A DNA stretch of 32,000 bases from Candidatus Saccharimonadota bacterium (GTDB taxonomy: Bacteria; Patescibacteriota; Gracilibacteria; BD1-5; UBA2023): positions 780,001-812,000 of the forward strand of contig OY970170.1 in the NCBI GenBank assembly GCA_963706795.1, written 5' to 3'. Positions 1-32,000 of this stretch are shown piece after piece. The notes under the pieces were generated by a model. It did not search any database and was not told the origin of the DNA. It saw only the letters and a list, made by a program, of their open reading frames with translations. The position numbers and the translations under genes were made by a program. The first letter of the stretch is position 1. The number at the start of each line of letters is the position of its first letter.

Positions 1-3000
1 TCCGAAGACTTTATTTGAATGGTTCTCGAGTTACTCAAGACAGAGGATGTACAAAAAATAGCGCAAGCAAAGAGTCTATTTGAGGAGCAAAGGATTTTTA
101 GTCAGTATGTAAATCCGAATCTTGCTGCAGATATCGCACAGGCCTTTTTAAAGCTTGGATGGTTCAATAATGCTTTTGGTTTTTACCGAATGGCTCTCCG
201 CATCGATGCGGAGGAAGTGGCGGAACTTCTCGATACAATGATCGATACCTTCCTCGATATTAGTGAGTTTGATCTTACGCCAGATGAGCTTGCTCATAAA
301 CCTCGTTTTGCGCAAGCTCAGCAAGAAATCATCGAAAAAATTCTGGCGAGAGCCAACGGTAATCTATTGGAGACCTATGGTTCTCGGATTTTTGTGACGA
401 TTGGCCGCATATATGAGAATTTTCTTGATTCTCCACTTAAAGCACAAGAGTATTTTAAGCATGGTGTGGAGCTTGGCGAGTGATATGCATATTTTTTACT
501 CTGAATTTCCTATGGAAATCAGAAGAATTATGCTGAAGCGATCCGAATTCATGAGCTTGGATGGCAAAAACATCAAGATCAGAATTGCCTTACATTGCTG
601 GTACGTGAATATTTATTTAAGGGTGATAGAGTTCGCGCGATGCATGCGTATGAGCTTCTTGTTTCTGCTATGAGGATATCAGGGAGGAAACTTCGTAATG
701 TTTTTCCTCTGCTGACGAGTGAAAGACTGTATCTTGATTCTGACTACTTAGCGATTCAAAGACATGCATCTGAGTCAGGAGAAACCATCGGGGGTATACA
801 GCGGATGCAGGCGCTTGAGTCCATTAAAGAAATGACCGAGCCGTTTATCGATACCCTAGAAACCCATGAGTTCAAGCTCGCACTCCATCAAATGGGCGCG
901 ATTGAATTGAACGATGTAGACAATGCGAGAGAATATATTGAGATGATTGCACATATTTTAGAGCTCTGAGATGAGTGAAAAACATGGCTCTGCAATTACT
1001 TTGAAACCTATGCTTCGCCGCTCGCTCTTAGAGTGTATACTGCCAAGGAAGAGGAAGAAGACAAGCAAAAAAATGTACAGAAAAAGGACGAATCAACCGA
1101 TGTAAAACCTCCTCAGGGTATGGTGCGAGCTCGTCTTGTTGAGCGTGTGCCGCAGGTGCAGACACAGGTGAGTATGCTGACAGATCAAGTTATACAAACC
1201 CCAGAAGATACGACTGAGCGCTACTCATTGCAAGAATATCTCGCTATGCACCTGGGATACATACAAGATCTTTGCTGGTTTGATGAGGATCTCGACTTAC
1301 TTGAGGCAATGGAAGTAATCCACGATCAGTGCTTCCTGCGTGATCAGGATACATATGGAGAAAATTCTATTGATGCGATTTCGGCATTTCAGCAGCATGA
1401 ACGAATTGCATATGCGACTCAAAAATATGATACCTTCCCAGAAAATTTAAAAATAGCCTACCGAAAAGCTATCGAAGAAATCGATGAAAAATATGGTAAA
1501 TCTTTTAGACGTCTCCATGTAAAACAGATCATTACTGAGGGTGAGACATATCCACTAGAAGAAGAATTTTTTTATCTCTTCTTAGAATGTTCGTTGCTCT
1601 GAGTGAACGAGGGGATTGCAAAAAGTCTCTCTGACTTGCTTCTTACCTCTCATTTCTCACAGGTAAATCAAAAGGCACTTGCGCAGGCATTCCACGAGTT
1701 TCCTGATACCATAGAGGACGAGAGACTGATAGATCACTTCCTTGAGGTTGGACTTGATGATATTGATGCACTGAAGGCACTTGTGACGATTGCCTCGGAG
1801 GATGAAAGTGAAGAAACAATCGGTAAAAATGCAGAATACCTTCGAGCGTGTCTTGTAGAACTTGGTCATCTCAGGCCAAAATCTTCGAAAAATTGGCTCT
1901 CGAGTTTTATAAAGAAGCACACAAATTGACTTCGTGCTCTCCATCCTGAATACAGCAAAGAACTTGATCATGTCATGATCGAAGCTTACAAGCATGATGA
2001 ATTATTTGACGCTGCCAAATGCATCTGTCTTCTTACTTGTGAGCAAGATCCAGAAATGTTTCGACAACTTGGATTGCTCGATGAGCTGACGGGAGACAAT
2101 GAATCCGCACTTCAGTGCTTTGAAAAAGTCTGGCAAGAGCATCATCTTGAGTCTGTGATCCCTGATCTGATGTTTATCTCAGCTGAATTAGGACATTGGC
2201 AAGAGCTCATTCATTGGTATGCGATCTGAAAACATATCGAAGTTCCAAATATCGATGCAGAGTTTGCAAATACAGCAACCATCGCGATAGCATGGAACGT
2301 CCTTACTGAAGAAGATGAAACAAGCCATAAAGAAGAGCAAGTAGAGTGACTTCGTCCAATATCTGCGGATCAAGCAAAGGTCGTCCAACTGGGGTATGAA
2401 GTTCTAGGCAATATTCTCGATAGTCAGGCAGGACCAGATTATAGGATGGCATCCGGAGAGGAATTCGGAGCATATTTGAGCCTTTCGTGCTGGATTTCCG
2501 AAGGAAGAGATGCTTGAGAATTTAAAGTCACTGCTTCCGAAAAACTCAGACATCTGAGATTTTTCCTCATGGAAGATGATGAAGCTGTTCATAAAATGCC
2601 AGAGTATTGGGAATGACTCTATCAGTTGTTACAAAGTAATAATCTAGGCATTTGGAGGGAGGTTTTTGAGTACTATGATAAACTGTTTGAAAGAAATCTC
2701 GCTGATGTAGCGCAAAATGACACGCATGATGAAGTAAACAAGAGTTACATGTATGCTGCAGTGTGTGAAGATATAGCGGATTTCATTAAAGTGATCCGAT
2801 CCCCTGAGTCTAAATGTCACGAGCAGACAGCAATAAAAACATATGCAACGATCGGAAAGATCTGTTTTTATATATTTGGCGATGCAATCGAGGCTAAAAA
2901 ATACTATGAGCTTGCCTGAGATGCTCAAAAAATGATAACGATGGAGGAAGTGATTGCCCATGATAATGATCATTCACTTCCTGTTTCGCGATACCTCCAC

Positions 3001-3003
3001 TAA
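1..3003 (+). CDS. Very large TPR/Sel1-like helical-repeat protein, at least 1000 aa. The 5' end may lie upstream of the window; an in-window ATG exists at 19.
   Basis: Track ORFs 19-483, 595-969, 1033-1602, 1603-1929, 1975-2229 and 2626-2919 are all in frame 1. They are separated only by TGA codons. The first TAA in that frame is at 3001-3003. TPR-like strings are present, for example GE-G-YAYFLL-G-ISYGNQKNYAEAIRIHE, where TGA sits at the TPR consensus Gly. No signal peptide or TM segment was seen. Confidence 0.6.
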
Positions 3004-3012
3004 GATCCTCCT

Positions 3013-5307
3013 ATGCAACGCCAACCAGATCTAGATCGAGTCATTACACTCGACGAATTTAATTGAGAGTTCCAGTGAGTGCAGAGTCTCATAGCGAATC
3101 AGGCTGCTCAAATAAGCTCATTGATACAGGAGAGTGATGATCAAGAGCTCGAGCATCTTCTCCATGAAAATAGCTCTTTTGAGAGACTGCAGATTATTTT
3201 GCAACGAGAATACAAGCGGGGCAATATTGCGAGTATGCTCGAGAAATGGGAAAAAATTGTAGAGAGTCATCCACAAGTTCAGGTGCATGCGCATCTTGTT
3301 TGAGAATATACTCTCAAACTTGTACAGCAGGCTTCTGCAGAGTGAGAAGTGCACTATAGTTCTTCTGCGCGCGATCGATTACATACCTCGCTCGAGACAC
3401 TTTTTTGACGGGACGAGGCATGAGTCTACGCAGATGGCAAAATACATCTTGAAATTCTACAACTCAAGGCACTTGAGCTTGCTGATTTTGAGAGTGCTAA
3501 ACAGTATGTTGCCACCATCAAAAAGTATCTTGAAAACCAAGAGGGCGTGGAGTTGCTTCGTGAACACTTTAGAGTGTTTTCGTCGCAGCTCGCATTGTAT
3601 CTTACTCGTCCGGATGAGCCAGTGGATGATTTTACATTGGCCAGTGCGGATGTGGATGATTCTGAGGATTTTTGTATGCTGATTTTATCTCATATCTCTG
3701 CTACATCGGGCAGATTCTATGATCATACTGCGAGAGCCATCTACGCCGACCTTGTGGATATCGGAAACATATTCCAAAATGAACGCTTCATAACAGCAGC
3801 TCATCAAAAACTGCAGCTTAGTGCCGCTATTCAAGAAACGCTTGATCAAGGAGGTGAAGAATTCGCTCGGTTTTATGAGCATGTAAAGAATGTGGCTGGC
3901 ATTACAATGGATTCAGCTCAAAATAGGGATATTGTTTTTGCAGAAATCGTTGCCAAGCAAAGCATAGTAAAGAGCGAAAAATTCGGCTCTTCGATGAGAC
4001 TTTTTGTTATGATGAATGCTCTCCTCTGCGGCTGTCCCCCAGAAATCACCGAATGAGTTCTTGATATGTGCTCAGCACGAGACTACACCAAAGAAGAATG
4101 CAAATTTATCGGACTATTCCTGCTCTCGCAAAGCCGAGATGCGGATGCTCTATATTACCTCGGTCAAGCAAATCTCTCGGATATGGAGGTCTTTTCTGCG
4201 CTTATGGACATACTGCGCAATAATATGGGCTTAGTCGACGTGCTGATGCAAGAAATTCTCCCGACTCGCAATGAGGTTCAGCAGACTGGTAAGATACCAA
4301 ATCTCAGGACTATTGCTCGTAAGTTTGTACGAATAACTAAAGACGCTGAGCCATCGGTTCAGAGTGATGCTCTCGTGCTTCTCGGGCAGACATATTTTTT
4401 TACATGAGAGAATGCCAAGGCTGAGGCATACCTTACTGAGGCTGCAAATATGGGGAATGTCTTGGCTCAAGAATGGATGATCAGTAATCACTCACATGAA
4501 TTCTGATCTACTTCCATGGAATCTCGAGTGCAAAAACTCTACGATCAGACCAAAAACCCAAAATACCTCTTTGACCTTGCGTCTCACGAGCTTGCAGTCG
4601 GTAATAGAGATCGTGTCATGGGATATTTGGAGCATTTGGATCACCATCAAAATCTCGATTATTTACGGCTCTACGTAGAGTATTTTTCTACGGGTACATT
4701 TGCCGACAAAATGGCCCTCCTGGGCGATCTTCATAGGATGAAGCCCGAAACTCGAAAGAGTATGAATCCAGCTGTGCTCCAAACTTATCTGAACTTTACA
4801 ACCGAGCAGCTCTCTGAGTTTGATGCTCGATGAAAAATCTTGCCTAAAGAAGTGAGTGATTATCTCTGGCTTGCTACGGGTCAGGCTATTCTCTCGCCCA
4901 ATCCTGACAAAGCGGTAGAGTATTTTGAGCGAATAAGAGCTCTCTTACTCCGCGAAGATGAAGCGGTCTATCTTGCAATGCTCCAGACATTTATAGGTAT
5001 GCAGTCAGGTGATATGACGAATGAGGCATTTATTTTTCGAGATACAAAATATGCGATGCTTGCATATCTCACAGAAGCTATCACTACAGAAGCACGAGCA
5101 TATTTTGAATGCTTCAGTGAACATCCTGATCTCTATATGCTCACGAATGCTATTGCATGGACTTTTCGTGATGGATGCAAAGATATACCGTTGGCAGATG
5201 AGTGGTTTGTGGAGACGCGTGAAAACATGAAAAATTTTAGTCCTTCTGATCGCATAGAATACTACCTCGCCCTGCAAAATACAGGTATTCCTGGCAAGCT
5301 TCACTAA
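3013..5307 (+). CDS. Large TPR/Sel1-like helical-repeat protein, 764 aa
   Basis: The ATG at 3013 lies 9 nt after the upstream TAA. Frame-1 fragments 3079-3303, 3547-4056, 4066-4407, 4516-4833 and 4840-5307 join through TGA codons only. The gene ends at TAA 5305-5307. A Sel1-like string is present: LLGQTYFFT-G-ENAKAEAYLTEAANMGNVLAQEWM. Confidence 0.6.
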
Positions 5308-5436: not shown

Positions 5437-7602
5437 ATGATTCCTGGACTTTCGGATCAGAACGTGGTCGACAAACAACCCGTGATTAAGACATATACCA
5501 TTGCTGGTAAAGCTATTACTTTCCAATCTGGAAAGCTCGCTCATCTTGCTGACGGTTCTGCCGTTATTTTAGACGAAGTTGGCAACTATCTCCTCACGAC
5601 CGTTGGCATCAAACAAGAAGCAAATCTCAATGCTTCGTTTTTCCCACTCAGTGTCGAATTTCAAGAAAAATACTACGCCTCTGGAAAGATTGGCGGAAAC
5701 CGCTTTATGAAGCGAGAAGGTCGTCCATCTGAGACGGCGATTCTCAACTCGCGTCTCATCGACCGACCAATTCGGCCAATGTTCCCAAAGGGCGTGCTCA
5801 ACGAAGTACAGATTATCTCTACTATTCTCTCTTCATCCGGAGTTTCTGACTTTGGATTTTGGGGAATTACTGGGGCTTCTCTCTCACTTTTGCTCTCGGG
5901 ATGCGCTCAGTTTGAAGGTCCAGTAGCTGGAGTTCGCATTGCGCTCACTGCTGATGACCAATTTGTGTTCGATCCAACATTTGAGGTGCTCGCCACTGCA
6001 AAGCTCGATCTCACGGTTGCAGGTACCAAAGACGCCATGACCATGGTCGAATCTCAGGCCTACGAAATTGAGGACACTGTTATGCTTCGTGCTTTTGAAT
6101 TTGCACATGCTGCGATCAAAGAGCTCTGTAATGCTCAAGAAGATTTCGTACGCGTCTATCTCCAGACTCACGCCCTTCCAAGTATTGTGCTTACTTGTAA
6201 GCAAGACAACGAAGAACTCAAAAACCGCATTTTTGATATCGTTACAGATGAGGAAATCAAGCCACTTTTCGGTACAGGAAAGATGGAATTTCATCACCAA
6301 CTTCATCTCCTCGAGGAGCGTGTTCTGGGAGTTCTCGGATATGACGAGGCAGCAGAATCTAACGAAGTTTCGCCTTCTGAAGTTGCAGAATATGTCTATG
6401 GTGCAGTAAAACACCACATGCGCCGCAAGGTTCTTGTTGAAAAAATCCGTCTCGATGGTCGCAAACTCGACGAGGTTCGTCCAGTTCGGTCTGAGGCCGG
6501 ACTCCTTCCTCGAACACATGGCTCAGTTCTCTTTGAACGTGGAGTTACGCAAGCACTCTCGATCACAACTCTCGGAGGTCCTGGTGACATCCAGATCGTT
6601 GATGATATGTTCGAAGAAAACACTAAGCGCTACATCCATCACTACAATTTTCCTCCGTTTTCGGTGGGAGAAGTGAAGCCACTTCGTGGAGTGAGCAGAC
6701 GTGAAATCGGTCATGGACGACTCGCCGAAAAGGCTGTCGAGGTCGTGCTCCCATCACTTGCAGAATTCCCATATTTTATCCGCGTAGTTTCTGAAATTAC
6801 GACGTGTAACGGATCATCTTCGATGGCGTCGATCTGTGGATCAACGCTCTCACTCATGGACGCTGGAGTTCCGATTAAGGCTATGGTTGCTGGTGTCGCC
6901 ATGGGTATGATCTTCGACGAAGAAACACGACAATACGAAATCCTCTCAGATATCCAGGCACAAGAAGACTTCCTCGGAGATCTCGATTTTAAGGTTGCAG
7001 GAACAGATCGTGGACTCACAGCGCTTCAGATGGACTGTAAGATCGCAGGTCTTCCACTTGAGGTTATTGCACGAGTTTTTGCTCAAGCAAAGGGTGCGCT
7101 TGGATATATCTCTGGTGAAATGAAAAAAACCCTCGCTGTTCCAAGACCAAATCTCTCTCCTTACGCGCCATTTATACTCTCAGTATTCGTACCTGAGGCC
7201 AAGATGCGCGAAGTTATCGGAAAGGGTGGAGAGACGATCCAGGGAATCGAAAAGGATTTCGGTGTCCAGGTCAATCTCGAGGATGACGGGCAGTGTTCAA
7301 TCACAGCCAAAGATCAGGCCTCCGGTCAGGCAGCACTTGCCTTTATCAAGGGTATTCTCAAAGATGACGAAGTTGGAGATATGCTCCATGGAAAGATCGT
7401 CAAAATCCTCGATGGTGTCGGCGCAATCGTTGAATGGGCGAAGGGAAAATCAGGAATGATGCATATCTCAAAACTCGGAGTTACTGAGCGTGTTGAAGAC
7501 ATCAATAAATACGTCCAAGTTGGCCAAGAAGTCGATGTAAAAATCATCGCCGTCGACAAAGAAAAAGGACGCGTCGGACTCGAAAGAATCATCAGTAAAT
7601 AG
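5437..7602 (+). CDS. pnp: Polyribonucleotide nucleotidyltransferase (PNPase). An alternative start at 5380 would add 19 aa.
   Basis: Uninterrupted 740-aa ORF with two RNase PH-like domains and C-terminal KH (VIGKGGETIQGIE) and S1 (GKIVKILDGVGAIVEW) domains. TAG stop at 7600-7602. The 5380 ATG sits in a hairpin loop, so 5437 is preferred. Confidence 0.95.
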   Translation: MIPGLSDQNVVDKQPVIKTYTIAGKAITFQSGKLAHLADGSAVILDEVGNYLLTTVGIKQEANLNASFFPLSVEFQEKYYASGKIGGNRFMKREGRPSETAILNSRLIDRPIRPMFPKGVLNEVQIISTILSSSGVSDFGFWGITGASLSLLLSGCAQFEGPVAGVRIALTADDQFVFDPTFEVLATAKLDLTVAGTKDAMTMVESQAYEIEDTVMLRAFEFAHAAIKELCNAQEDFVRVYLQTHALPSIVLTCKQDNEELKNRIFDIVTDEEIKPLFGTGKMEFHHQLHLLEERVLGVLGYDEAAESNEVSPSEVAEYVYGAVKHHMRRKVLVEKIRLDGRKLDEVRPVRSEAGLLPRTHGSVLFERGVTQALSITTLGGPGDIQIVDDMFEENTKRYIHHYNFPPFSVGEVKPLRGVSRREIGHGRLAEKAVEVVLPSLAEFPYFIRVVSEITTCNGSSSMASICGSTLSLMDAGVPIKAMVAGVAMGMIFDEETRQYEILSDIQAQEDFLGDLDFKVAGTDRGLTALQMDCKIAGLPLEVIARVFAQAKGALGYISGEMKKTLAVPRPNLSPYAPFILSVFVPEAKMREVIGKGGETIQGIEKDFGVQVNLEDDGQCSITAKDQASGQAALAFIKGILKDDEVGDMLHGKIVKILDGVGAIVEWAKGKSGMMHISKLGVTERVEDINKYVQVGQEVDVKIIAVDKEKGRVGLERIISK

Positions 7603-7607
7603 CTTTT

Positions 7608-8171
7608 ATGCCAGCTGATATCATCCCACTCGGTGAACATCGCGATCTCAAGGCTGAAAAAAATCTCGAACAAAGGTTTCGTGATACAAACTTCCAGTAT
7701 CTTGCTGCAGTGGCTGAGATCATAAAAACTCGGGAAATTCTTATTCAGCGCGTGTATGATCTCCTCCCTGTAAAGCCCTCAGTAGTAGATGATTCAGCTC
7801 TTAAAGAAACTCCAAAAGGACTCGAAACAGCGCAGATATATTCACTCAATTCTCGAGTTACTCCGGTAAATCCGCTCACTCAGATACTTCGAATGATCAG
7901 CTTGTGGGACGAAAATATACATCAGTCCATGGATCCAAAACTCAGACTCCCATCCGAAGATCTGGGTCCCGATGAAAATCGCATGAAGCATCTGCTCGTA
8001 CTTGTCGATCAGTGTTCTGCATCGGAGATTGAGGAACTGGCAAAATACCTCAGCAGTGTAAATATTGCTCACGCCTCTCGCACAGTTATTGTGCAAAAAG
8101 CACATCTTCATATCTTGATATCTCAAAAAAGAGAACAATTCCAAAAACTCAATAATGACCAACAAAGATAA
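7608..8171 (+). CDS. Hypothetical protein, 187 aa
   Basis: Intact ORF that starts 6 nt after the pnp stop. It overlaps the next gene by 17 nt and ends in TAA. No recognisable motif. Confidence 0.55.
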   Translation: MPADIIPLGEHRDLKAEKNLEQRFRDTNFQYLAAVAEIIKTREILIQRVYDLLPVKPSVVDDSALKETPKGLETAQIYSLNSRVTPVNPLTQILRMISLWDENIHQSMDPKLRLPSEDLGPDENRMKHLLVLVDQCSASEIEELAKYLSSVNIAHASRTVIVQKAHLHILISQKREQFQKLNNDQQR

Positions 8172-9525: not shown

Positions 9526-9612
9526 GCCCAGGTGGTGGAATTGGTAGACACGCAGGTTTCAGATACCTGTAGGAGCAATCCTATGTGGGTTCAAGTCCCA
9601 TCTTGGGCACCA
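9526..9612 (+). tRNA. tRNA-Leu (anticodon CAG), type II with long variable arm and encoded CCA
   Basis: Hand-folded. The acceptor stem GCCCAGG pairs with CTTGGGC. The D-arm is GTGG-AATTGGTAGA-CAC. The anticodon stem is CAGGT/ACCTG with loop TT-CAG-AT. The T-arm is GTGGG-TTCAAGT-CCCAT, followed by discriminator A and CCA. The architecture closely parallels E. coli tRNA-Leu(CAG). Confidence 0.9.
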
Positions 9613-10525: not shown

Positions 10526-12464
10526 ATGCCTCCACTTTGGACGTTACACCCTCATTTGAATGCTGGATATCATAGAATTTTGCATATGGATTATCTCAGC
10601 CGATAAGGGATTCATGATTACCAGTGCTCGTGATTTTTCCATCCTCGATGCAATAGATCGTATCGACATGGCGAATCGTCGACATGCGATGAGTGATGAA
10701 AATAATAATCTTTTCGCTTTTTTCTCCCAGGAGCTCTCGCATGATACGAAGCTCGTTTTCGGCATCGAGCTGGTTTGTTCCTTCGTCGAGGATGAGAATG
10801 GGGCGATCTTGGAGTAGTGTACGAATAATCGCAATAAGCTGTCTTTGTCCACCGGAGAGATCGTCATCCCAGCCAATATTATTATCGAGACCGAGTCGGA
10901 GTTTTTGGATCTTGGTTTTGAGTCCGAAGTTATCCAAGAGCTTCCAGAGCTCATCATCGCTGACTGCGCGTTCAACCCCGAGCGTGAGATTTTCACGGAT
11001 CGTGAATCTGCCATTCATAATAAACGGATCCTGGCTGACGTATGAGGCGAGTGAATAGAGTGCATCACGCCTAATTGTTTTACCTTCAATCTTGTTGTAG
11101 CTGATCGTTCCTTCGTAGTTTGAGAAGAATCCAAGGATGAGATTAATGAGCGTCGTTTTGCCTGCACCATTTTTGCCGACGATACCGTAGATATTTCCTT
11201 TTTTAAAACTCAGATTGATGTCATGGAGAATCACGGGGCTTGGGAGCTCGATTTCGGCCTTGAGTTCTTTGAGCATGTGGATCTCATCAAGATCCCAGGT
11301 ATTCATATTTTTGTAGGATTCGATTCGTCGTATTGAGATATCTATGAAGGATTTTTCAGCTTCTGCAGATTTTGGATACTGGAATACGCAATTGCGAATA
11401 CTGATGGATTCTACGGGATGTGAGATACAATTAATCCGCAGTTGATCGCCGTTCTCGGTCATTCCAAGGAAAAGCTCCATTCGAGCGAGATCATCTGCAA
11501 TCTTGTTTTTATCGATCCAAGTACTGAGAATATTATTTACGACCTCTCATATTTGAGAGGTATAGAGCATCGTCATTGTCATAAGACCGATGGATCCAGT
11601 CGAATAGTAAATCGTATATCAGACATACATTTTGATGAGCAATGTAAAGAAATTCTCATTGATGAGTTGCACAATGCTCCAGCTGGCATCACCGAGGACT
11701 TCAGTCTTGCGACTCACTGCGATTTGCTCAAGAATTCCAGCAAATTTTTGCGTAAATGATTTCGTTGCGCCATTGACGACTATGTGATGATATGACCGTT
11801 GTAATGCAGCTTCCATGTTCCATCTGAGAGAAGTGAGCTCATGATTGCTCTTGAGATTAAAGTGTATCATGAACGCATTTTTGTGCTGCTGTATCAAAAA
11901 TGCGAATATCGCAGATACAAATACAAGCAAAAATATTTTGTAATCCGTGAACGAAAATACAAGGAGTACTGAACTCGCCGTAATAAACATCCCAATTTTA
12001 GCGATGGTGAAATCCTCGATTTTGGCGGGCATGTCATTTACGGTACTTCTGGCGCTCTCGATGAGTCTTTGATATCTTGCAGAGAGCGAGTAGCCTGGAT
12101 CCAGAAACTGTGTGCGTTCGGTGACTTCAATGAGGAGACTGTTTTCGAGACGCTTTTTTTCGACTTCGGTTGCGAGTTTGAAGCCGAGATCTATCAGTGC
12201 TTTGAGAAGGTCTGCGATAAATATGATTCCTAAAATGATCAAAAATATTCCATATGGCGTATTCGTGAACATAAAAAATGTCGCGCTTTTTTCGACAAGC
12301 TGGTCCATCTCGAGCTTCACAAGATAGGGGAGTCCTGCCTGGATCAAACGCGCAACAATGGTTGTAATGAGCGCAATGAGGAAGTATCTGCGATGCTTCT
12401 TATAAACGATTTCCCAGATGAATTTTATTGCACGGGAATACTTCTCTCTCAAGCGCACGAACAT
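10524..12464 (-). CDS. ABC exporter, fused permease and ATPase (type I exporter, MsbA-like), 646 aa
   Basis: Track ORFs 11619-12464 (TMD) and 10596-11480 (NBD) share one frame. Three in-frame TGAs join them (11619-11621, 11547-11549, 10596-10598). Walker A is GKNGAGKT, the signature is LSGGQRQ, and Walker B is ILILDE. The C-terminus continues as G-DNPYAKFYDIQ... to TAA (complement of 10524-10526). Confidence 0.9.
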
Positions 12465-22151: not shown

Positions 22152-23474
22152 ATGAATAAGCCCATCGAGAACGAACAGCAATTCAAAAAAGTCATCACAG
22201 CACTCGGAGACAAAAGTGGTTCCTCGAGTCATTTTCAGTCTGACAAATTTGATCAGCTCGCCAAGTATGTCCATGAAGCCCTCGAAAAACAGGACTCTGA
22301 TCTGGCACTCACACTCATCACAAAATGAGCACTTTCGCTCGGATCTTCTGATGTCCATTACGATCTCTCCGATGGTCTCACACAGGTACGACTTCGTATT
22401 GATGGTAATCTCGTGACAATTTTTGCGCTCGAACTTCGTCAGTACAAACTGCTTCTTGAACGTCTCAAATACAAATCCGAACTCAAACTCAATATCACCA
22501 ATATTCCACAGGATGGAAAATACCGTATTTTGGATGATGTGAGCCGAATAGACGTTCGTGTTTCGACGCTTCCAGTCAAGAATGGAGAGAATGTGGTATG
22601 TCGTATTTTGGATTCGACAAATGCAATTCCAAAGGTTTCAGATCTTGGATTTATCTGGACTTCAAAGCGTCAGATCGACAAAAGTCTCAAGAAAAAGGCA
22701 GGAATGATCCTTGTAACGGGACCGACTGGATCGGGTAAAACTACTACGCTCTATTCGATCATGCAGGAGCTCAATGTTCCTGAGCACAAGATCATTACCC
22801 TCGAAGATCCCATCGAATACGATCTCCCATGAGTGGTTCAATCCGAGGTAAATGAAAAGAATGGCTATAACTACCATACTGGCCTCAAGGCGCTTCTGCG
22901 TCAGGATCCGGATGTTATTATGATTGGTGAAGTGCGTGATCTCGATACTGCAAATACTGCCGCGCAGGCTTCGCTGACGGGACATCTTGTGCTCTCGACA
23001 CTGCATACCAAGAGTGCTTCTGAGACGCTTGAGCGACTCATGAATATGGGGGTAGCATCATATATTCTTGCCTCGTCTATCGATATCATTATTGCTCAGC
23101 GCCTCGTTCGCAAGCTCTGTCCACACTGTATCGAGTCCTATATCGCCGACGAATCTCAGAGCGAAGTTATCAAATGGATGATGCAAGATATTGGTATCGA
23201 TGCCGTTGCCAAGGCCAATAAAAATGGCTACAAGCTCTATCGTTCGAAGGGATGTGAACACTGTGGTTTTACAGGATATCGCGGTCGACTCGGTATTTAC
23301 GAAGTCCTTCATTTTAATGACGACATTCGCAAACTCATCCGAGATGGCGCAAGTCCCGCACAAATCTTGGTTGAAGCTCGCAAAAACGACCTCATTCTCA
23401 TGCGTGAAGACGGTGTCCTCAAAGCCATGCGTGGTAAAACTTCACTCGAAGAAGTCTTTAGTGTAATTGAATAA
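22152..23474 (+). CDS. pilB: Type IV pilus / type II secretion assembly ATPase (PilB/GspE family), short form of 440 aa
   Basis: Frame 3 from ATG 22152 joins 22413-22832 and 22833-23474 through TGAs at 22326-22328 and 22830-22832. Motifs are SDVHYD...VRLRIDG, Walker A GPTGSGKTTT, the Asp box, Walker B VIMIGEVRD, the His box TGHLVLSTLH, and the tetracysteine CPHC...CEHC. Confidence 0.9.
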
Positions 23475-25718: not shown

Positions 25719-25749
25719 AAAAAAACCGATAGGCACTATCGGTTTTTTT
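25719..25749. terminator. Bidirectional rho-independent terminator shared by bcp and the convergent GH26-like gene
   Basis: AAAAAA-CCGATAG-gca-CTATCGG-TTTTTTT. The minus-strand gene's TAG lies inside the stem. Confidence 0.75.
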
Positions 25750-26872
25750 GTAGATTTTTTTCTCTCAGAGTGAGTGGCTTTTTGATCGTTTTCCCAGTAC
25801 CAAAAGGAAGATTTTTGGTACTCATTTTTGGATCGCTGAAAAATTCGAGAATGTTGGTATACGCCTTACCGGTTTCGAGCGAGAGAGCTGCCCAATCGAG
25901 TTCTTCTGCGCGACTGCGATCCGTGAGTCACTTCGTGCGATCTCGATTGAAATAGAGGGCTCCGACTATCGTGGGCTCGGATGCTATGGTTTCGTGCATA
26001 TGAGTGAGCCAGAGATTTTTCTTGGTGGTGGTATTTTTGTATTCGTCTTTTGCCTTTTGCTCGGACCATGGTCATTCAAAATCAACTGCGGTCGTTCCGA
26101 CTTCATCTAAAAATATGGGTTTGCCATAGAGTTTGAGGCGCTCAAAGGTCTGCATTTTTGATCCAATGAGTAGGCTTTTAAATGACTGCCACTTTGCCCA
26201 CGAGGCATTTCGGCCGCGTCCCCAGTTGTACATGCTGAGACTCGCCATATCGACATATTCGCTTCCTGGATAAAAATCCTCAAGTGTTTTACAGTGTGTT
26301 TTTTGTTTTGTAGTCTGACTGCAATAGATAATTTTGCCATTTACGACGCCATTTTCAGAGGGGAGATCCTCGATATTTACCGCAAAATTAAAGAGGATGT
26401 TATTGCGATCGAGTCCTGCAGTGCGCGAGAGATTCCAGATACGTTTGTAGGCGATCTGATAATTTTGAGGATCGCCGGACCATGAGAACCAATTGCCATT
26501 CATCTCATGCATGGTGCGAAAGATAAACTTCCCATGGGATTCTTTCATGGTCGCAAAGAGCCTCGAATATGCCACATCAAATTTGCCATCTGCGACTGCT
26601 TTTGCGCTGAGTCCAAGAGGCGAGAGTGTCACATGGTAGATACGATCGACCCCAAGATTTTTGATATTTGCAGAGAGTGTTTTGGCGTCTTCTGTGCTAA
26701 AACTATCAAAAATAAACCCAACAATAGGAGCACGGAAGCTATATTTTTGCTCGAGCGTGGTGATCTCGGAGGCATTGTTGTTTTCGGGATATATTCCAAA
26801 TGCGTAATCTGCGTGGACGCTGCTACAAAGACTGAGCGCGACGAGCAAAAAGATCGTATAGAGTTTTTTCAT
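25736..26872 (-). CDS. Secreted glycoside hydrolase family 26-like protein, 378 aa
   Basis: Signal peptide MKKLYTIFLLVALSLCSSVHA. The motif RTMHEMNGNWFSWSG matches the GH26 HEMNG.WFWWG block. The ORF 26072-26872 extends through two TGAs to TAG (complement of 25736-25738). Confidence 0.75.
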
Positions 26873-26978: not shown

Positions 26979-27506
26979 ATGCCAAAAGCTCAAGCCAAGG
27001 GATCTAAAAAAAAGAATACTCCTCAGCCTCGTATTCCACTCGCCGACCGTTTTATCAAATGGATAGGTTCCGAAAATTCGCTCGTGGCGCATACCGTCTT
27101 TTTTATTGGTGCATTCTCATTTTTGCTCTTTGGGTTTTCTCTAGATAAGATTCTTCTGGTGCTTACAACCGTATTATCACTCGAAGCAATCTATCTCGCG
27201 ATCTTTATCCAGATAGCGATCAATCGCAATACCGAGAGTCTCCAAAATGTCGAAAAAGACATCGACGAAATCCAAGAGGATATCGATGAGATCCAAGAGG
27301 ACATCGACGAAATCCAAGAGGACGTTGATGAGATTCAGGAAGACGTCGAACTCATCGAAAAAGACATCGACGAAATCCACGAAGAAGAAGTCCTCGAAGA
27401 AGACGATGCCGAGCGCACACGCAAATTTTTCGTCAGTCTCGAATCCCAACTCCAAAAACTCATCACCGAAGTCGACACCCTCAAAAAATCAAAAACAGGG
27501 AAATAA
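26979..27506 (+). CDS. DUF1003-like two-TM membrane protein with an acidic repeat tail, 175 aa
   Basis: The hydrophobic core ends in SLEAIYLAIFIQIAINRNTESL, which resembles the DUF1003 ...QNR... motif. The C-terminal half is (DIDEIQE)n. TAA stop. Confidence 0.6.
   Translation: MPKAQAKGSKKKNTPQPRIPLADRFIKWIGSENSLVAHTVFFIGAFSFLLFGFSLDKILLVLTTVLSLEAIYLAIFIQIAINRNTESLQNVEKDIDEIQEDIDEIQEDIDEIQEDVDEIQEDVELIEKDIDEIHEEEVLEEDDAERTRKFFVSLESQLQKLITEVDTLKKSKTGK
27258..27383 (+). repeat. Six tandem 21-nt units (consensus GACATCGACGAAATCCAAGAG) encoding DIDEIQE heptads
   Basis: Units begin at 27258, 27279, 27300, 27321, 27342 and 27363. Units 1 and 3 are identical. The others differ mainly at synonymous or conservative positions. 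Confidence 0.9.
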
Positions 27507-27536
27507 AAAAAATCTGGGAATTCCCAGATTTTTTTT
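27505..27536. terminator. Bidirectional terminator (perfect palindrome) between the DUF1003-like gene and the convergent pilin gene
   Basis: AAAAAAAA-TCTGGGAATTCCCAGA-TTTTTTTT. Confidence 0.75.
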
Positions 27537-28323
27537 ATGGTGTGATCGTACAGCCGGTACCGCTTACTCAGCCACTTGCATCAAGTATGAGGTAGGTTCC
27601 AGATCACATACTCAGCCCAGCATCAGCAATTGCTTGGCAGCTTGTATAGTCGCTCGCACTCGGTAAGCTCACTCAGTTTTCTGAGGCTATATCTGTAAAA
27701 AGTGTCGCTTTTGTTACCGCCTTTCCGCTCGTGTCGTATGGAATATTGATACTGCTATTATTTATAATAAAGCTGAGTTGGTTTGTTGCGCCCGCTCCGA
27801 TACCTGGATTTACCTCTAGATCGCTCGTCGTATTTACAGCGAGTAAGAGGCTCGGAAAGATCGATGGCATGAGTGCCAGGTAGTCGCCATCGACATAGGC
27901 TCGTAAAATATTCGCTCATTCTATCGTCATCCCGATTTGGTAACTCTGTCTATTCGTCAGGCTCGAGTACATATACGCCCGAGCAGTCCGAGGATCGATG
28001 CGAAGTTTTGTGCTATTTCCCTTGGTAATGGCATCCGAATTTCCTTGGTAGACGACCGCTACTCCGTTATTTAAAAGCGAGAAATTACTTGCTGGAAGGG
28101 GATAGGAGCCTAGCGTTTGTTTATTGCTACGAAGTTGCGTCTTCATCTCAGCCATGTCCGTTTTGCGTGTACTATTACGTGCATCAACCGCACTATTCGA
28201 AAACGAAACAAATGCGATCGTCGACAAAATTGAGAGCACAAGTATCACTACAATGAGCTCTACGAGCGAAAACCCCGCACAGCTTTGTATCTGCGATCGC
28301 CTTAAAAAAAGAGTTGTTTTCAT
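27535..28323 (-). CDS. Type IV pilin / pseudopilin, 262 aa
   Basis: The class III signal is MKTTLFLRRSQIQSCAG|FSLVELIVVILVLSIL (G-F-S-L-V-E5). Fragments 27916-28341 and 27673-27870 are in one frame and extend through four TGAs to TAA (complement of 27535-27537). A C-terminal Cys pair is present (SCQAI...GTGC). Confidence 0.85.
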
Positions 28324-28422: not shown

Positions 28423-29109
28423 TTGAGCACGAGAGTTCTCACGTTCGCGAAACGCTTGCTTTCCACTGTTTTATTTGGAACGCTTTTTGTGACACTAGTG
28501 GTATCAGCCTTTGATTCTATCGCGCAAAATATTAGCCCACAAAATGCTACACAAACCTGATCCAACAACGTAGTTTGGTTCTCGACGGGTACGATTTCTG
28601 CATCTCAGTATTTCACTCAATACGTCAATCTAAATGATGATTCTGCCACGGTTGGTAATTACTTCCATGGATATTACTACGATACGCAATTTGGCTTTTT
28701 TAAGCTCGATTGGGATTCGGATGTGAACAATAATGTCCGTGTAATTAGCTCTACAGACCGTTGTGCTACGGGATATGGTTACAAACTTGGTGGATTTGCT
28801 CAGGGTGTGGATGCTGGGCTCATCAATTTTAATTACAGCTCTGACGTCTTTGTCTATTACTGTGAGTCCGACAGCAAACTCCATGGCTACGCCTATAACG
28901 AGGACTATGGTTTTCAGAGTTTTGAGTGAATTAGCTTTACAATAGCAGCTGTAAGCACACAAGTGCCATTGGTCCAGGGTTCTTCGGATCCATTCTTTGT
29001 AAATAATCAGTCGATGATCCTATCCTCTCCGGTTGGATTCTCTTCAATCCAATGAGATGAACAATCCAGTGAATGGGGGAAATCCGCGCTCTTCTTCATT
29101 GTAAAATAA
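28423..29109 (+). CDS. Secreted protein with three internal G-[YF]-[AY]-x4-G-x-x-x-F motifs, about 228 aa (start uncertain)
   Basis: Frame 1 is open from 28363 to TAA 29107-29109 through three TGAs. There is no ATG; TTG 28423 gives a good signal peptide (STRVLTFAKRLLSTVLFGTLFVTLVVSAFDSIA). The repeats are HGYYYDTQFGFFKLDW, LGGFAQGVDAGLINFNY and LHGYAYNEDYGFQSFE. It is divergent from the pilin gene. Confidence 0.55.
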
Positions 29110-29124
29110 GCCTGATTTGACCTC

Positions 29125-29159
29125 AAAAATTCTCCTGACTATCCAAGGAGAATTTTTTT
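29125..29159 (+). terminator. Rho-independent terminator
   Basis: AAAAATTCTCC-(11-nt loop)-GGAGAATTTTT followed by a T-run. Confidence 0.65.
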
Positions 29160-29275
29160 ATACATGCTTTTTATCAAAAATATAGTGGTTTTTACAATAC
29201 AGGAGGTCGGAAAAATTTTACATTCCAAAGAACATATGTGACAATGATATGAGTAAAGTTTACTGCCTCCTTCCC

Positions 29276-32000
29276 ATGAAACACACAAAAAACCTACTTT
29301 CGGCACTTTTGCTCGTAATGTCCGTAATCAGCCCTTCTGTTCAGGCTCTTACGGTGGCTGATGCTGTTAATTCGATGCAGGCTGCGCCTCCTTCGGATCT
29401 CCCATCGGTTGCAAATCCACGAGGGAATATTGGATATATTCTGTCGACTATTTTTTATGGATCGTCGGATGGTGCTCTCAATGGCAAAATCAAACCACAG
29501 TATCTTGATCTCTCTGGAGTATCGAGTGGAGGAGGAACTTCTCAGTGGACTACGACCGGATCTTCGATCTATTATGGATCGACAGTCGGTATCGGTACGA
29601 GCAATCCAAATACTGCATACACACTCGATGTAGCAGGTGGTATCCGTGCTTCAAATGGAATTACGATTACAGCAGGAAGTGTTTCGCTTCCAACGGGTGC
29701 GATCAGCTCAAATGCCATTGCAGACGGATCACTCCTCTTTGCTGACTGGAATCAAAACTGATGTACGGTTGGTCAGATCCCAAAGTGGAATGGCTCTGCA
29801 TGGGCCTGCTCGGGTGACTCGGGTGTTGGATCAGAAACCGATCCTGTTTGGACTGCAGCAATTAATAACTACTACACAAAAACTAATCTCCAGACTTCTG
29901 GTCAGGCAAGCGTAAATTGGGGGAATCTCACGAGCGTTCCTACAGCATCAACAGCCACTTCGGGTATCGTTTTGCTTGTAGATGGAACGGGTTCTACTTC
30001 AACAACGAGTGCTGCGACAGCAAACTCAGTAAAAACTCTCTGGGATAGTATCGTCGGCAAACTTACAGGAAGCGGAACCGTGAATTATATTCCAAAATTT
30101 AACTCGACTGGATCAGTTGCAAACTCACAGATCTTTGATGACGGAACCTATGTTGGAGTCGGAACGCCAACACCTACCGAAAAATTCGAAGTCGCTGGAA
30201 ATATCAAGCTCTCAGGAGGAGTACCTACCTACCGCATTACCAATCTCGCAAGCCCCATTGGTAATGATGATGCTGCGAATAAGGGGTATGTAGATACCAA
30301 GGTTTCTGCAGCGGGAAGTGCAGTCTCAAACAGCTATCTCTCAAACGGATCCTACTATTCAGAAGGAGGATCGCCATATTTTTGTAAGCTCAACACACTC
30401 GCAGGAACGGTCCAAAAGATCACTCCAGTCAATCAGAATCAACTCTGTGATACTGCGTCAAATCTCTATTGTAATGCAGGTCTCTGTAATGCTTCGGCAA
30501 GTACTATTGCCTCTATCCGCAGTAGCAATCAGCTCGTAAGTGCGAAAGATGACAAGTCATGTTCGGTTAATAACGGGCAGGTCTACTGCTGGGGATATAC
30601 TGGAAATGGTCAGAAATATCTCGGTCTCTCGCTTGCGGGTGTAAATGACAGTGGAAACGGACATACATGTGCACTTCTCTGAAATGGTCAGATCAAGTGT
30701 TGGGGAACCAATACTTCTGGTCAGCTTGGGAATGGTACAAATTCAGCCTCGTCTATTCCAGTTTCGGTAAGTGGTATCTCAAATGCTATCAAGGTGGTAA
30801 CAGGAAGCTCGATGTACAGCACCGCCAATGGTATGAGCTGTGCGCTCCTTGCTGATGGAACAATCAAGTGTTGGGGAAATAACGCAGTTGGCCAGCTCGG
30901 CGATACAACTACGACCAATCGAAATACTCCCGTGAGCGTTTCGGGTATCTCAAATGCAATCGATATCGCCATCGGAAATCCAAATGCATCAGCAAGTGCG
31001 ACGGTTTGTGCTGTACTCTCAACAGGTGGAGTAAAGTGCTGGGGATACGGAGGAAATGGTCAGCTCTGAAATGCTGCAAGCTCAAATAGTGCTACACCAG
31101 TAACAGTAAGTAGTCTCACAAATGCACTCCGTATTTATGCATCTGGAGTAGCGGATACCACAAATGGAACAATGTGTGCTCTCATTTCAGACGGTACGAT
31201 AAAGTGCTGGGGTACGCTTCCAGGTGCGAATAGTGCAACGGCTGTGTCTGGTATTACGAATGCAGTTGATCTCTCGATTAGTAACTCGAATGGAAGTTCA
31301 TCTTTTGCTTGTGCAGTCCTCGCAACTGGTTCGATCAAGTGTTGGGGAACAAATGGTTACGGGCAGCTCTGAGATGGAACACAAACAAACTCAGCCACTC
31401 CTGTAACGGTTGCTGGTATCTCAAATGCGCTCAAGGTCTATACCTCTATGAGTGCTGCAGGTACAGCCTATGCCTATGCCTGTGCGCTCCTTGCAGATGG
31501 TACCATCAAATGTTGGGGAAATGAAGTAAGTGGACAATTTGGAGATGGAACAGCCAGTGCTCTCAGACTCACGCCAGTAACAGTAAATGGTATCACGAAT
31601 GCAATTGATCTCTCAATTGCTCAAACTTCTGGATCTGATGGATCATCATTTGCCTGTGCGACACTCGCAAATGGTCAGGTAAAATGTTGGGGAGCTGCTA
31701 GCGTAAATCAGCTTGGATATGCCTCTACGACAACCGCAACGTCGCCAGTAACTGTACAGGGGATTTTTACTGCTCAAAAAGTATTCGTAACAGGAAATTC
31801 ATCATCATCGACAGTTTCACAATGATATGCCTGTGCTATCCTTGCAGAAGGTGGTATCTCATGTTGGGGACAAAATTCTGACGGTCAGCTCGGAGATAAT
31901 ACAACTGCTAACAAGACCACTGCTACACCGGTGTATTCTGCGAATGGTCTCTATTATACGGGTATTGGAAACCTCACTGCTGATAAGATGAGTCCAGAAC
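29276..32000 (+). CDS. Giant secreted surface protein with a tail-fibre-like N-terminal region and at least 9 RCC1 beta-propeller repeats. It is 3' partial, with more than 900 aa inside the window.
   Basis: Frame-2 fragments 29249-29761, 29972-30682, 30794-31069, 31172-31372 and 31448-31825 join through TGAs. The signal peptide is MKHTKNLLSALLLVMSVISPSVQA; an upstream ATG at 29249 is also possible. Fibre-like motifs are VGIGTSNPNTAYTLDVAG, GQIPKWNGSAWAC, ATSGIVLLVDGTGSTSTTSAATANSV and NDDAANKGYVD. The RCC1 unit CALLADGTIKCWG.N..GQLG(TGA)DG is iterated. No stop occurs before position 32000. Confidence 0.85.

Follow-up and report, generated by a model that had tools for sequence, protein, structure and literature searches.

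A gene for a large secreted protein begins at position 29276 on the forward strand of a 32,000-nucleotide stretch of DNA from Candidatus Saccharimonadota bacterium (GTDB lineage Patescibacteriota; Gracilibacteria; contig OY970170.1, positions 780,001 to 812,000; hereafter the window) and runs off its end. The 2725 nucleotides inside the window (29276–32000, +) are the 5′ part of the gene and encode residues 1–908 of 1346 under genetic code 25. The protein, referred to here as the target, is a chimera in which sequence modules of the phage-tail-fibre type are joined to RCC1 blades; its gene belongs to the cell rather than to a prophage, has conserved partner genes and is linked to genes for pilins. 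Architecture and context together lead us to regard it as a large Sec-exported extracellular protein, and on balance probably as an adhesin displayed at the cell surface for binding to another cell. From the N-terminus, the layout comprises a Sec signal peptide, a conserved head, a mosaic of fibre modules, a Cys-rich linker, two successive RCC1 arrays (arrays 1 and 2) and a Cys-rich C-terminal domain that may be lectin-like. This domain order is the same in all the full-length orthologues listed: MDD2745358.1 (locus L003; 1240 residues), the orthologues at loci L005 (1354 residues) and L051 (1768 residues, with 35 TGA codons), and P0043 (1038 residues).

Reading frame and full-length gene

Read with translation table 11, positions 29276–32000 contain five in-frame stops, all of them TGA (at 29759, 30680, 31067, 31370 and 31823; the first spans 29759–29761, +). 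Each falls at a glycine position of the repeat consensus, for example a stop after GQL where the consensus reads GQLG. The frame has no TAA or TAG within the window and stays open under code 25 for 908 codons, up to the window end; the preliminary description of this DNA, which had proposed a single open reading frame of more than 900 codons and allowed for an overlooked TAA or TAG, was correct on this point. The full gene contains nine TGA codons, eight of which face GGN codons in both of two aligned orthologues. More widely, the 11 window genes identified with confidence hold 20 in-frame TGA codons and no internal TAA or TAG, and many other window genes are whole only if TGA is read as a sense codon. 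The restriction of stops to TGA at glycine positions, together with the alignment to GGN codons, therefore indicates that the window uses genetic code 25 (UGA = Gly), under which the frame from 29276 is a single gene. To our knowledge, this code occurs only in Gracilibacteria and Absconditabacteria.

The remainder of the gene was recovered from a Logan contig (ERR12037365_754047, locus L002) that overlaps the last 4492 nucleotides of the window with 100% identity. The complete open reading frame lies at L002 1768–5808 and consists of 1346 codons, nine of them TGA, with a TAA stop; the gene thus continues for 1316 nucleotides past the window end, where the preliminary description had seen it run off. 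An exact look-up in the public protein collection did not find the full-length protein; the source genome, a 1.27-Mb contig, is represented there by code-11 fragments only. Family members in public sets are likewise cut at TGA codons by code-11 translation (fragments P0001–P0008), and P0043 is stored as a code-4 translation with Trp at the Gly positions (‘CWWNNNYWQLWDGT’). Such genes are systematically broken or mistranslated in public sets, so standard searches will largely miss the family. Antisense to the target runs a further frame free of TAA and TAG, 1379 codons long under code 25 (window 29294–32000, continuing to 33433 in merged coordinates), which could mislead gene callers; it is probably a compositional by-product of Gly-, Ser- and Thr-rich codons and a two-stop code.

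Domain architecture

The Sec-type signal peptide (29276–29347, +; residues 1–24, MKHTKNLLSALLLVMSVISPSVQA, with Leu after the cleavage site) was read from the sequence and has a lysine-containing n-region, a hydrophobic core and a VQA cleavage site preceding Leu. Its n-, h- and c-regions and AxA site are kept in four orthologues, there as AQA before Leu; the clean signal peptide reported in the preliminary description, which was to be doubted if orthologues lacked one, is a conserved design. The N-terminus has neither a lipobox cysteine nor the prepilin G-F-x-x-x-E motif (no Pfam N_methyl match), and neither a sortase signal nor a lipoprotein motif nor a C-terminal membrane anchor was found in the full sequence. 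The head that follows (29348–29530, +; residues 25–85) has no Pfam match; when orthologues are compared with the window protein, no other segment is as well conserved (62–70% identity).

The mosaic of phage-tail-fibre-type modules occupies 29531–30325 (+; residues 86–350). Its motifs include VGIGTSNPNTAYTLDVAG (residues 103–120), VGVGTPTPTEKFEVAG (residues 296–311), TATSGIVLLVDGTGSTSTTSAATANSV, NDDAANKGYVD and GQIPKWNGSAWAC, and all the tail-fibre-like motifs quoted in the preliminary description are present in the translation. Domain profiles agree with this assignment: a Pfam Phage_fiber_2 repeat at 29951–30064 (+; residues 226–263) scores 26.7 bits, above the gathering cut-off of 22 (E = 4e-6), and PHROG tail-fibre families match residues 200–345 with E-values down to 6e-8. 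Besides the Phage_fiber_2 repeat, the target has ‘YYTKTNLQTSGQASV.W.NLT’, ‘VGIGT..P...L.V.G’ and ‘D.A.K.YVD’ modules in common with phage tail fibres and tailspikes. An exhaustive phmmer/HMMER search with residues 163–445 returned 4179 cluster representatives at E ≤ 1e-3, many of which are giant repeat proteins of 1–5.8 thousand residues matched in 10–36 stretches. When seven large relatives were scanned, five (P0040, P0044, P0045, P0047 and P0053) were found to end in Peptidase_S74 or Peptidase_G2, which are intramolecular chaperone domains characteristic of the trimeric fibres and spikes of phages; one has a T7 tail-fibre N-domain and one (P0043) is another protein combining fibre modules with RCC1. 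The target differs from phage fibres in its signal peptide, its cellular context and the absence of a C-terminal S74 or G2 chaperone domain (Pfam scan), and it has RCC1 arrays and a lectin-like domain where phage fibres have a receptor-binding tip. In IMG/VR, 34 viral contigs gave local matches at the level of motifs only and none held a co-linear relative; a tblastn search of 50,697 GenBank phage genomes gave no match, and a PDB sequence search with the N-terminal region yielded only a noise-level hit to phage Gp44 (8es4, E = 0.23). The likeness to phage fibres, as judged by these comparisons, is at motif level only. At the L051 locus (gene at L051 4924–10230), the first fibre module (SQWTT...VGIGT...KWNGSAWAC) is swapped for a VNGKTGSVVITQSDVGLSNVENT... 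module at residues ~85–190, which we interpret as mosaic module exchange of the kind by which phage fibres and tailspikes evolve.

A Cys-rich linker (30326–30610, +; residues 351–445), which the preliminary description had placed between the fibre half and the RCC1 repeats, is 61–83% identical among orthologues, with conserved cysteines in alignments. It leads into RCC1 array 1 (30560–31942, +; residues 429–889), which was identified with the Pfam families WD40_RLD, RCC1 and RCC1_2 (PF25390, PF00415 and PF13540) and a blade hidden Markov model. Array 1 has nine blades, the first of them partial, spaced at ~56 residues; array 2 (residues ~925–1217) has six canonical blades of ~50 residues, giving 15 in the full target by the blade model, nine of them in the window. 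E-values within the window are 1e-66 for the RCC1-like domain and 9e-36 for RCC1_2, and a second RCC1-like match has E = 6e-69; the matches score 226 and 234 bits with WD40_RLD (cut-off 150) and 121 and 148 bits with RCC1_2. The preliminary description, which had counted at least nine repeats in a multi-blade propeller, was accurate as to the repeats and their number in the window, while the single propeller gives way to two arrays of nine and six blades.

Blade number varies between related genomes in array 1, which has nine blades in the target, seven in L003, nine in L005 and 17 in L051, with array 2 constant at six; with the module swap in L051, this answers the preliminary description’s call to compare variability across relatives. 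The difference between nine and seven blades corresponds to an in-frame indel of two blades, one long and one short unit. In L051, array 1 resembles three sub-arrays, each closing with a ‘terminal-type’ blade.

Array 2 could be modelled with high confidence in an orthologue: an AlphaFold2 model of residues ~805–1100 of P0036, equivalent to target residues ~925–1217, has a predicted local distance difference test (pLDDT) score of 90–98 and contains 24 strands arranged in six four-stranded blades. Foldseek matched the model to UVR8, the RCC1-like domains of HERC2, RPGR and RCC1 at E ~ 1e-30, with a root-mean-square deviation of ~1.7 Å over ~310 columns; its six blades align in space with all but one of the seven found in UVR8 and HERC2. 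The secreted RCC1-type propeller BLIP-II was also among the structural matches. By sequence, array 2 falls into a very large bacterial RCC1 family (3793 matches), with its closest members in Chloroflexota at 40–48% identity. These bacterial ‘alpha-tubulin-suppressor-like’ (COG5184-type) proteins mostly stand alone with one or two propellers, and they, like UVR8 and HERC2, differ from array 2 in having seven rather than six recognizable blades. Array 1 departs further from the stand-alone proteins, being an expandable run of 7–17 blades with an alternating long and short unit, set between fibre and lectin-like domains.

The Cys-rich C-terminal domain (residues 1216–1346) lies beyond the window end, where the preliminary description stopped, and is a third component absent from that account. 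It appears to resemble DUF1554/endostatin-like domains, which are related to C-type lectins. In all three orthologues tested, it matched DUF1554 or the Leptospira Len family at both ends of the profile, below threshold in each case; its match to NCBIfam LenA/B (E = 3.6e-4) is also far under the family cut-off. BLASTP against Pfam-verified DUF1554 proteins gave E-values of 2e-6 and 7e-4, and hhalign a probability of 82% over 23 columns. A word-index search with the domain gave no match and a PDB sequence search only noise (E = 0.2). The domain shares with Leptospira Len proteins the N-terminal signature ‘Y.GNLGG..GA...C’ and the C-terminal signature ‘C..WT......C....LLC’, scoring 14–16 bits against a threshold of 27.5. 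Len proteins are small lipoproteins, unlike the target, in which the domain is the C-terminus of a 1346-residue fibre protein.

Orthologues, partner genes and pilin-fused relatives

Co-linear relatives of the target are rare: a word index of 5.8 billion sequences gave 35 matches, and only 2 of ~185,000 species genomes contain one. A JGI metagenome scan added six loci matching at motif level, among them no new orthologue and no co-linear relative. Together with the window, five code-25 loci are syntenic, and their target proteins are 44–63% identical. For the closest genome pair, the window and L052, the T2SSE ATPase is 88.6% identical, the DUF948 protein 78%, the pilin 55% and the target 44–51%; its fast divergence relative to its neighbours is the pattern expected of exposed surface proteins. 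Repeats within the target gene are only 60–85% identical at the DNA level. When the gene was cut into 300-nucleotide tiles, none recurred elsewhere in 38 kb, nor was a credible reverse transcriptase motif found there. There is therefore no signature of a diversity-generating retroelement or of recent conversion, for which the preliminary description had advised a search of the repeats.

Genes in the window lie in the order TilS, RNHCP, PilB-type ATPase, three small proteins, AhpC, GH26 (−), DUF948, pilin (−), up228 and target. L002 continues beyond the target with dn354, signal peptidase I (S26), small99, a pilin-like gene (−), a second pilin-like gene and dn398. The PilB/GspE-like type II/IV secretion ATPase (22152–23474, +; Pfam T2SSE, E = 9e-113) lies 6 kb upstream of the target, and L052 has the same gene order. 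The pilin-like gene (27535–28323, −; 262 residues), which also has an orthologue in L052, scores 26.9 bits with N_methyl (cut-off 21.2) and 26.3 bits with TIGR02532 (cut-off 16.3). The preliminary description had placed the target next to this pilin gene. The two are indeed close, but they are not immediate neighbours, as up228, a secreted protein of ~228 residues (28423–29109, +; TTG start, two in-frame TGA codons), lies between them; under code 11, it is invisible and resembles a gene-poor spacer. Homologues of up228 (54–65% identical) stand directly upstream of the orthologue in L003, L005 and L052. Between up228 and the target is a terminator-like hairpin with a U-run (29125–29157, +), with a predicted folding free energy of −13.1 kcal/mol (z = −4.3; none of 200 shuffled sequences was as stable), followed by promoter-like hexamers at 29171–29198 and 29217–29245.

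Downstream, dn354 (L002 5874–6938; 33382–34446 in merged coordinates) has an N-terminal membrane anchor followed by ~8 C-x(8-25)-C pairs and is 32–37% identical across four loci, and small99 is a small membrane protein. Pfam and NCBIfam scans of up228, dn354 and dn398 gave no match. The core of target, dn354, S26 and small99 recurs in L003, L005 and L051, joined in L003 and L005 by up228 and pilin-like genes; L052 has the whole upstream gene order, with its S26 gene upstream of up228. Pilin-like genes flank the target in the window/L002, L003 and L005, and L052 has the upstream pilin only before its contig ends; in L051, the core cluster has no detectable pilin-like genes nearby. An S26 gene is found within two genes of every gene that combines a fibre module with a DUF1554 or DUF1554-like domain (7 of 7 loci, including two in which the modules are fused to a prepilin): L002 6941–7516, L003 5875–6444, L005 ~7629–8051, L051 ~11541–11990, L052 ~6456–6971, L008 7200–7886 and L010 5061–5657. 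It is downstream of the fibre-module gene in four loci and upstream in L052 and L008. None of the annotated neighbours looks phage-like; where one matches a family, the gene belongs to housekeeping, secretion or the pilus.

The two prepilin-fused relatives, P0014 and P0022 (MCX7616324.1), come from Patescibacteria and consist of an N_methyl motif, a pilin body, a fibre module and then a Pfam-significant DUF1554 domain. Their module (‘VGIGT..LEVAGNIKLSG.TPTYK.TNVA.P...D.A.K.YVD’, with DUF1554 directly after it) is near-identical to that of the target, in which a Sec signal replaces the pilin moiety and ~770 residues of RCC1 blades are placed between fibre module and C-terminal domain. An S26 gene is directly adjacent to the prepilin-fused genes, whose neighbourhoods are otherwise unrelated. 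In related bacteria, pilins thus display the fibre and terminal modules seen in the target. P0014 and P0022 fit the ‘modular pilin’ adhesin concept developed for type IV pilins such as Streptococcus sanguinis PilB/PilC (PMC8179133), of which they are the counterparts here. They share with the target the succession of a fibre module and the same type of Cys-rich C-terminal domain, and the adjacent signal peptidase I gene, and differ from it in having a class III (prepilin) signal and a pilin body.

Two further genes in the pilus-linked region deserve mention. A secreted GH26-like protein with a signal peptide (25736–26872, −; Pfam GH26, E = 2e-8) could act on host or envelope glycans, and a DUF948-like membrane protein (26979–27506, +), conserved in L052, contains a perfect acidic tandem repeat (DIDEIQE DIDEIQE DIDEIQE DVDEIQE DV...). 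Elsewhere in the window, two adjacent large proteins (19–3003 and 3013–5307, +; 994 and 764 residues) look cytoplasmic and are rich in helical repeats. A tRNA-Leu(CAG) at 9526–9612 (+) is the only RNA gene in the window, with no other Rfam match at gathering thresholds.

Functional interpretation

We favour, as plausible, the interpretation that the target is a surface- or pilus-associated adhesin built of borrowed fibre modules. Once exported by the Sec pathway, the protein would be cleaved by the signal peptidase I encoded at the locus. Its conserved N-terminal head might then keep it on the cell by attaching to the membrane protein encoded nearby or to the complex of minor pilins in the adjacent type IV pilus, and the fibre-type region would form an extended, possibly trimeric, shaft carrying the propellers and the lectin-like end domain distally, where they could bind ligands on the surface of a host or prey cell. 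Length variation in array 1 and module swapping in the fibre region may adjust, from one species to another, how far the protein reaches and what it binds. The adhesin interpretation fits published proposals that members of this group attach to hosts by means of type IV pili and large surface proteins (PMC8080830, PMC11452946). It also fits the modular-pilin/PilY1 precedent, where pilins share their adhesive modules with a propeller protein that is not a pilin and sits at the tip of the pilus (PMC8179133).

Several observations weigh against this interpretation. Conservation along the protein does not follow one consistent gradient: the distal half is the more diverged in comparisons with the window protein, yet it is better conserved than the fibre half between L003 and L005. 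An AlphaFold2 monomer model of the N-terminal half of orthologue P0002, built from a 10-sequence alignment, has a mean pLDDT of 33 and a predicted template modelling score of 0.16; a model of this quality neither confirms nor refutes a fibre fold. DUF1554 scores are always sub-threshold (14.0 bits for the target and 16.4 for orthologues, against a PF07588 gathering threshold of 27.5), and the C-terminal domain of an orthologue, modelled with array 2, has a pLDDT below 50. As no anchor motif was found, the sequence is equally compatible with release of the protein from the cell. The S26 protein encoded at the locus matches the general signal peptidase I equivalog TIGR02227 (87 bits against 47) and may be a housekeeping enzyme kept beside a major cargo, or a dedicated one. 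Finally, we know of no established adhesin function for bacterial RCC1 proteins.

A narrower form of the adhesin interpretation, which we consider possible but put forward tentatively, is that the target is a functional analogue of PilY1/PilC: a Sec-exported non-pilin propeller that the neighbouring minor pilins would present at the tip of the adjacent type IV pilus, and that reuses modules found grafted directly onto pilins in other Patescibacteria. The gene is flanked by a major-type pilin and three pilin-like genes, with the PilB-type ATPase upstream, and P0014 and P0022 bear the same fibre module and DUF1554 domain on a prepilin. PilY1/PilC proteins are themselves large non-pilins with a Sec signal peptide and β-propeller content, encoded beside minor pilin genes, and PilY1 has modules in common with modular pilins (PMC8179133). 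However, the target has no Pfam match to the PilY1/PilC propeller (E ≤ 0.1 to 0.5), so that its propellers are without homology to it; they are of the RCC1 type, and the domain order differs, the propellers being central rather than C-terminal. The absence of pilin-like genes near the L051 core cluster and the hairpin that parts the target from the upstream genes also argue against a role at the pilus tip.

More speculatively, the observations can be combined in a single scenario whose parts we would regard, taken jointly, as unlikely to hold in full. Gracilibacteria and other Patescibacteria may have co-opted phage receptor-binding (tail-fibre) modules, presenting them in two interchangeable forms, either grafted onto pilins, as in P0014 and P0022, or as a separate Sec-exported fibre, which a dedicated set of proteins (up228, dn354, S26 and small99) would hold on or beside the type IV pilus. 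The target would then be a host-specificity determinant of the episymbiont, in which the expandable RCC1 array sets the reach and the terminal lectin-like domain the choice of ligand.

The remaining alternatives seem less probable still. The target could serve the envelope structurally, as part of an S-layer or fibrous coat, without taking a specific part in recognizing a host. The thick fibrous surface of relatives in this group has been ascribed to large secreted proteins (PMC8080830), and the target is secreted, repetitive and rich in Gly, Ser and Thr, with a repeat array of variable length. This family is rare, however, and one would expect a core part of the envelope to occur widely across the clade; its terminal lectin-like domain and pilin-fused relatives suggest ligand binding instead, and we think a purely structural role improbable. 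We give even less credence to a released soluble binding protein, inhibitor or toxin, for example a BLIP-II-like propeller inhibiting a host enzyme. The absence of an anchor motif and the BLIP-II structural match are compatible with release, but BLIP-II is a single small propeller, and its example leaves the fibre region, the two arrays and the lectin-like end unexplained, as well as the conserved linkage to membrane and pilin genes. The least probable origin, a phage or prophage tail-fibre gene, has in its favour the Phage_fiber_2 and PHROG matches, the motif matches in viral contigs and the NCBI product name of the L003 orthologue, and is largely refuted by gene context, with five syntenic cellular loci and no phage genes among the annotated neighbours, as well as by the failure to find a tblastn match, a co-linear IMG/VR relative or a chaperone domain, and by the presence of a Sec signal peptide, which phage fibres normally lack.

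The preliminary description did not recognize the domain combination as a described architecture. In the literature searched, we found no description of it either, but it is not wholly absent from the public record: NCBI holds the full-length orthologue MDD2745358.1 as ‘MAG: tail fiber protein [Candidatus Gracilibacteria bacterium]’. None of the domain types is new in itself, and it is already accepted that these bacteria have large surface proteins. What appears to be undescribed is the combination of a Sec signal, a fibre mosaic, an expandable RCC1 array, a second RCC1 array and a DUF1554-like end, along with the conserved partner cluster that includes signal peptidase I and the relation to prepilin-fused versions. 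On this sequence evidence, the protein is a concrete candidate for host recognition, with no categorically new mechanism implied. No member of the Gracilibacteria has been cultivated (PMC11452946), and published work on host attachment points in general terms to ‘type IV pili and large surface proteins’ (PMC8080830, PMC11452946). The locus described here provides a concrete, conserved and fast-evolving candidate for host attachment with defined partner genes, tied evolutionarily to pilin-displayed versions of its modules in other Patescibacteria and to the receptor-binding modules of phages.

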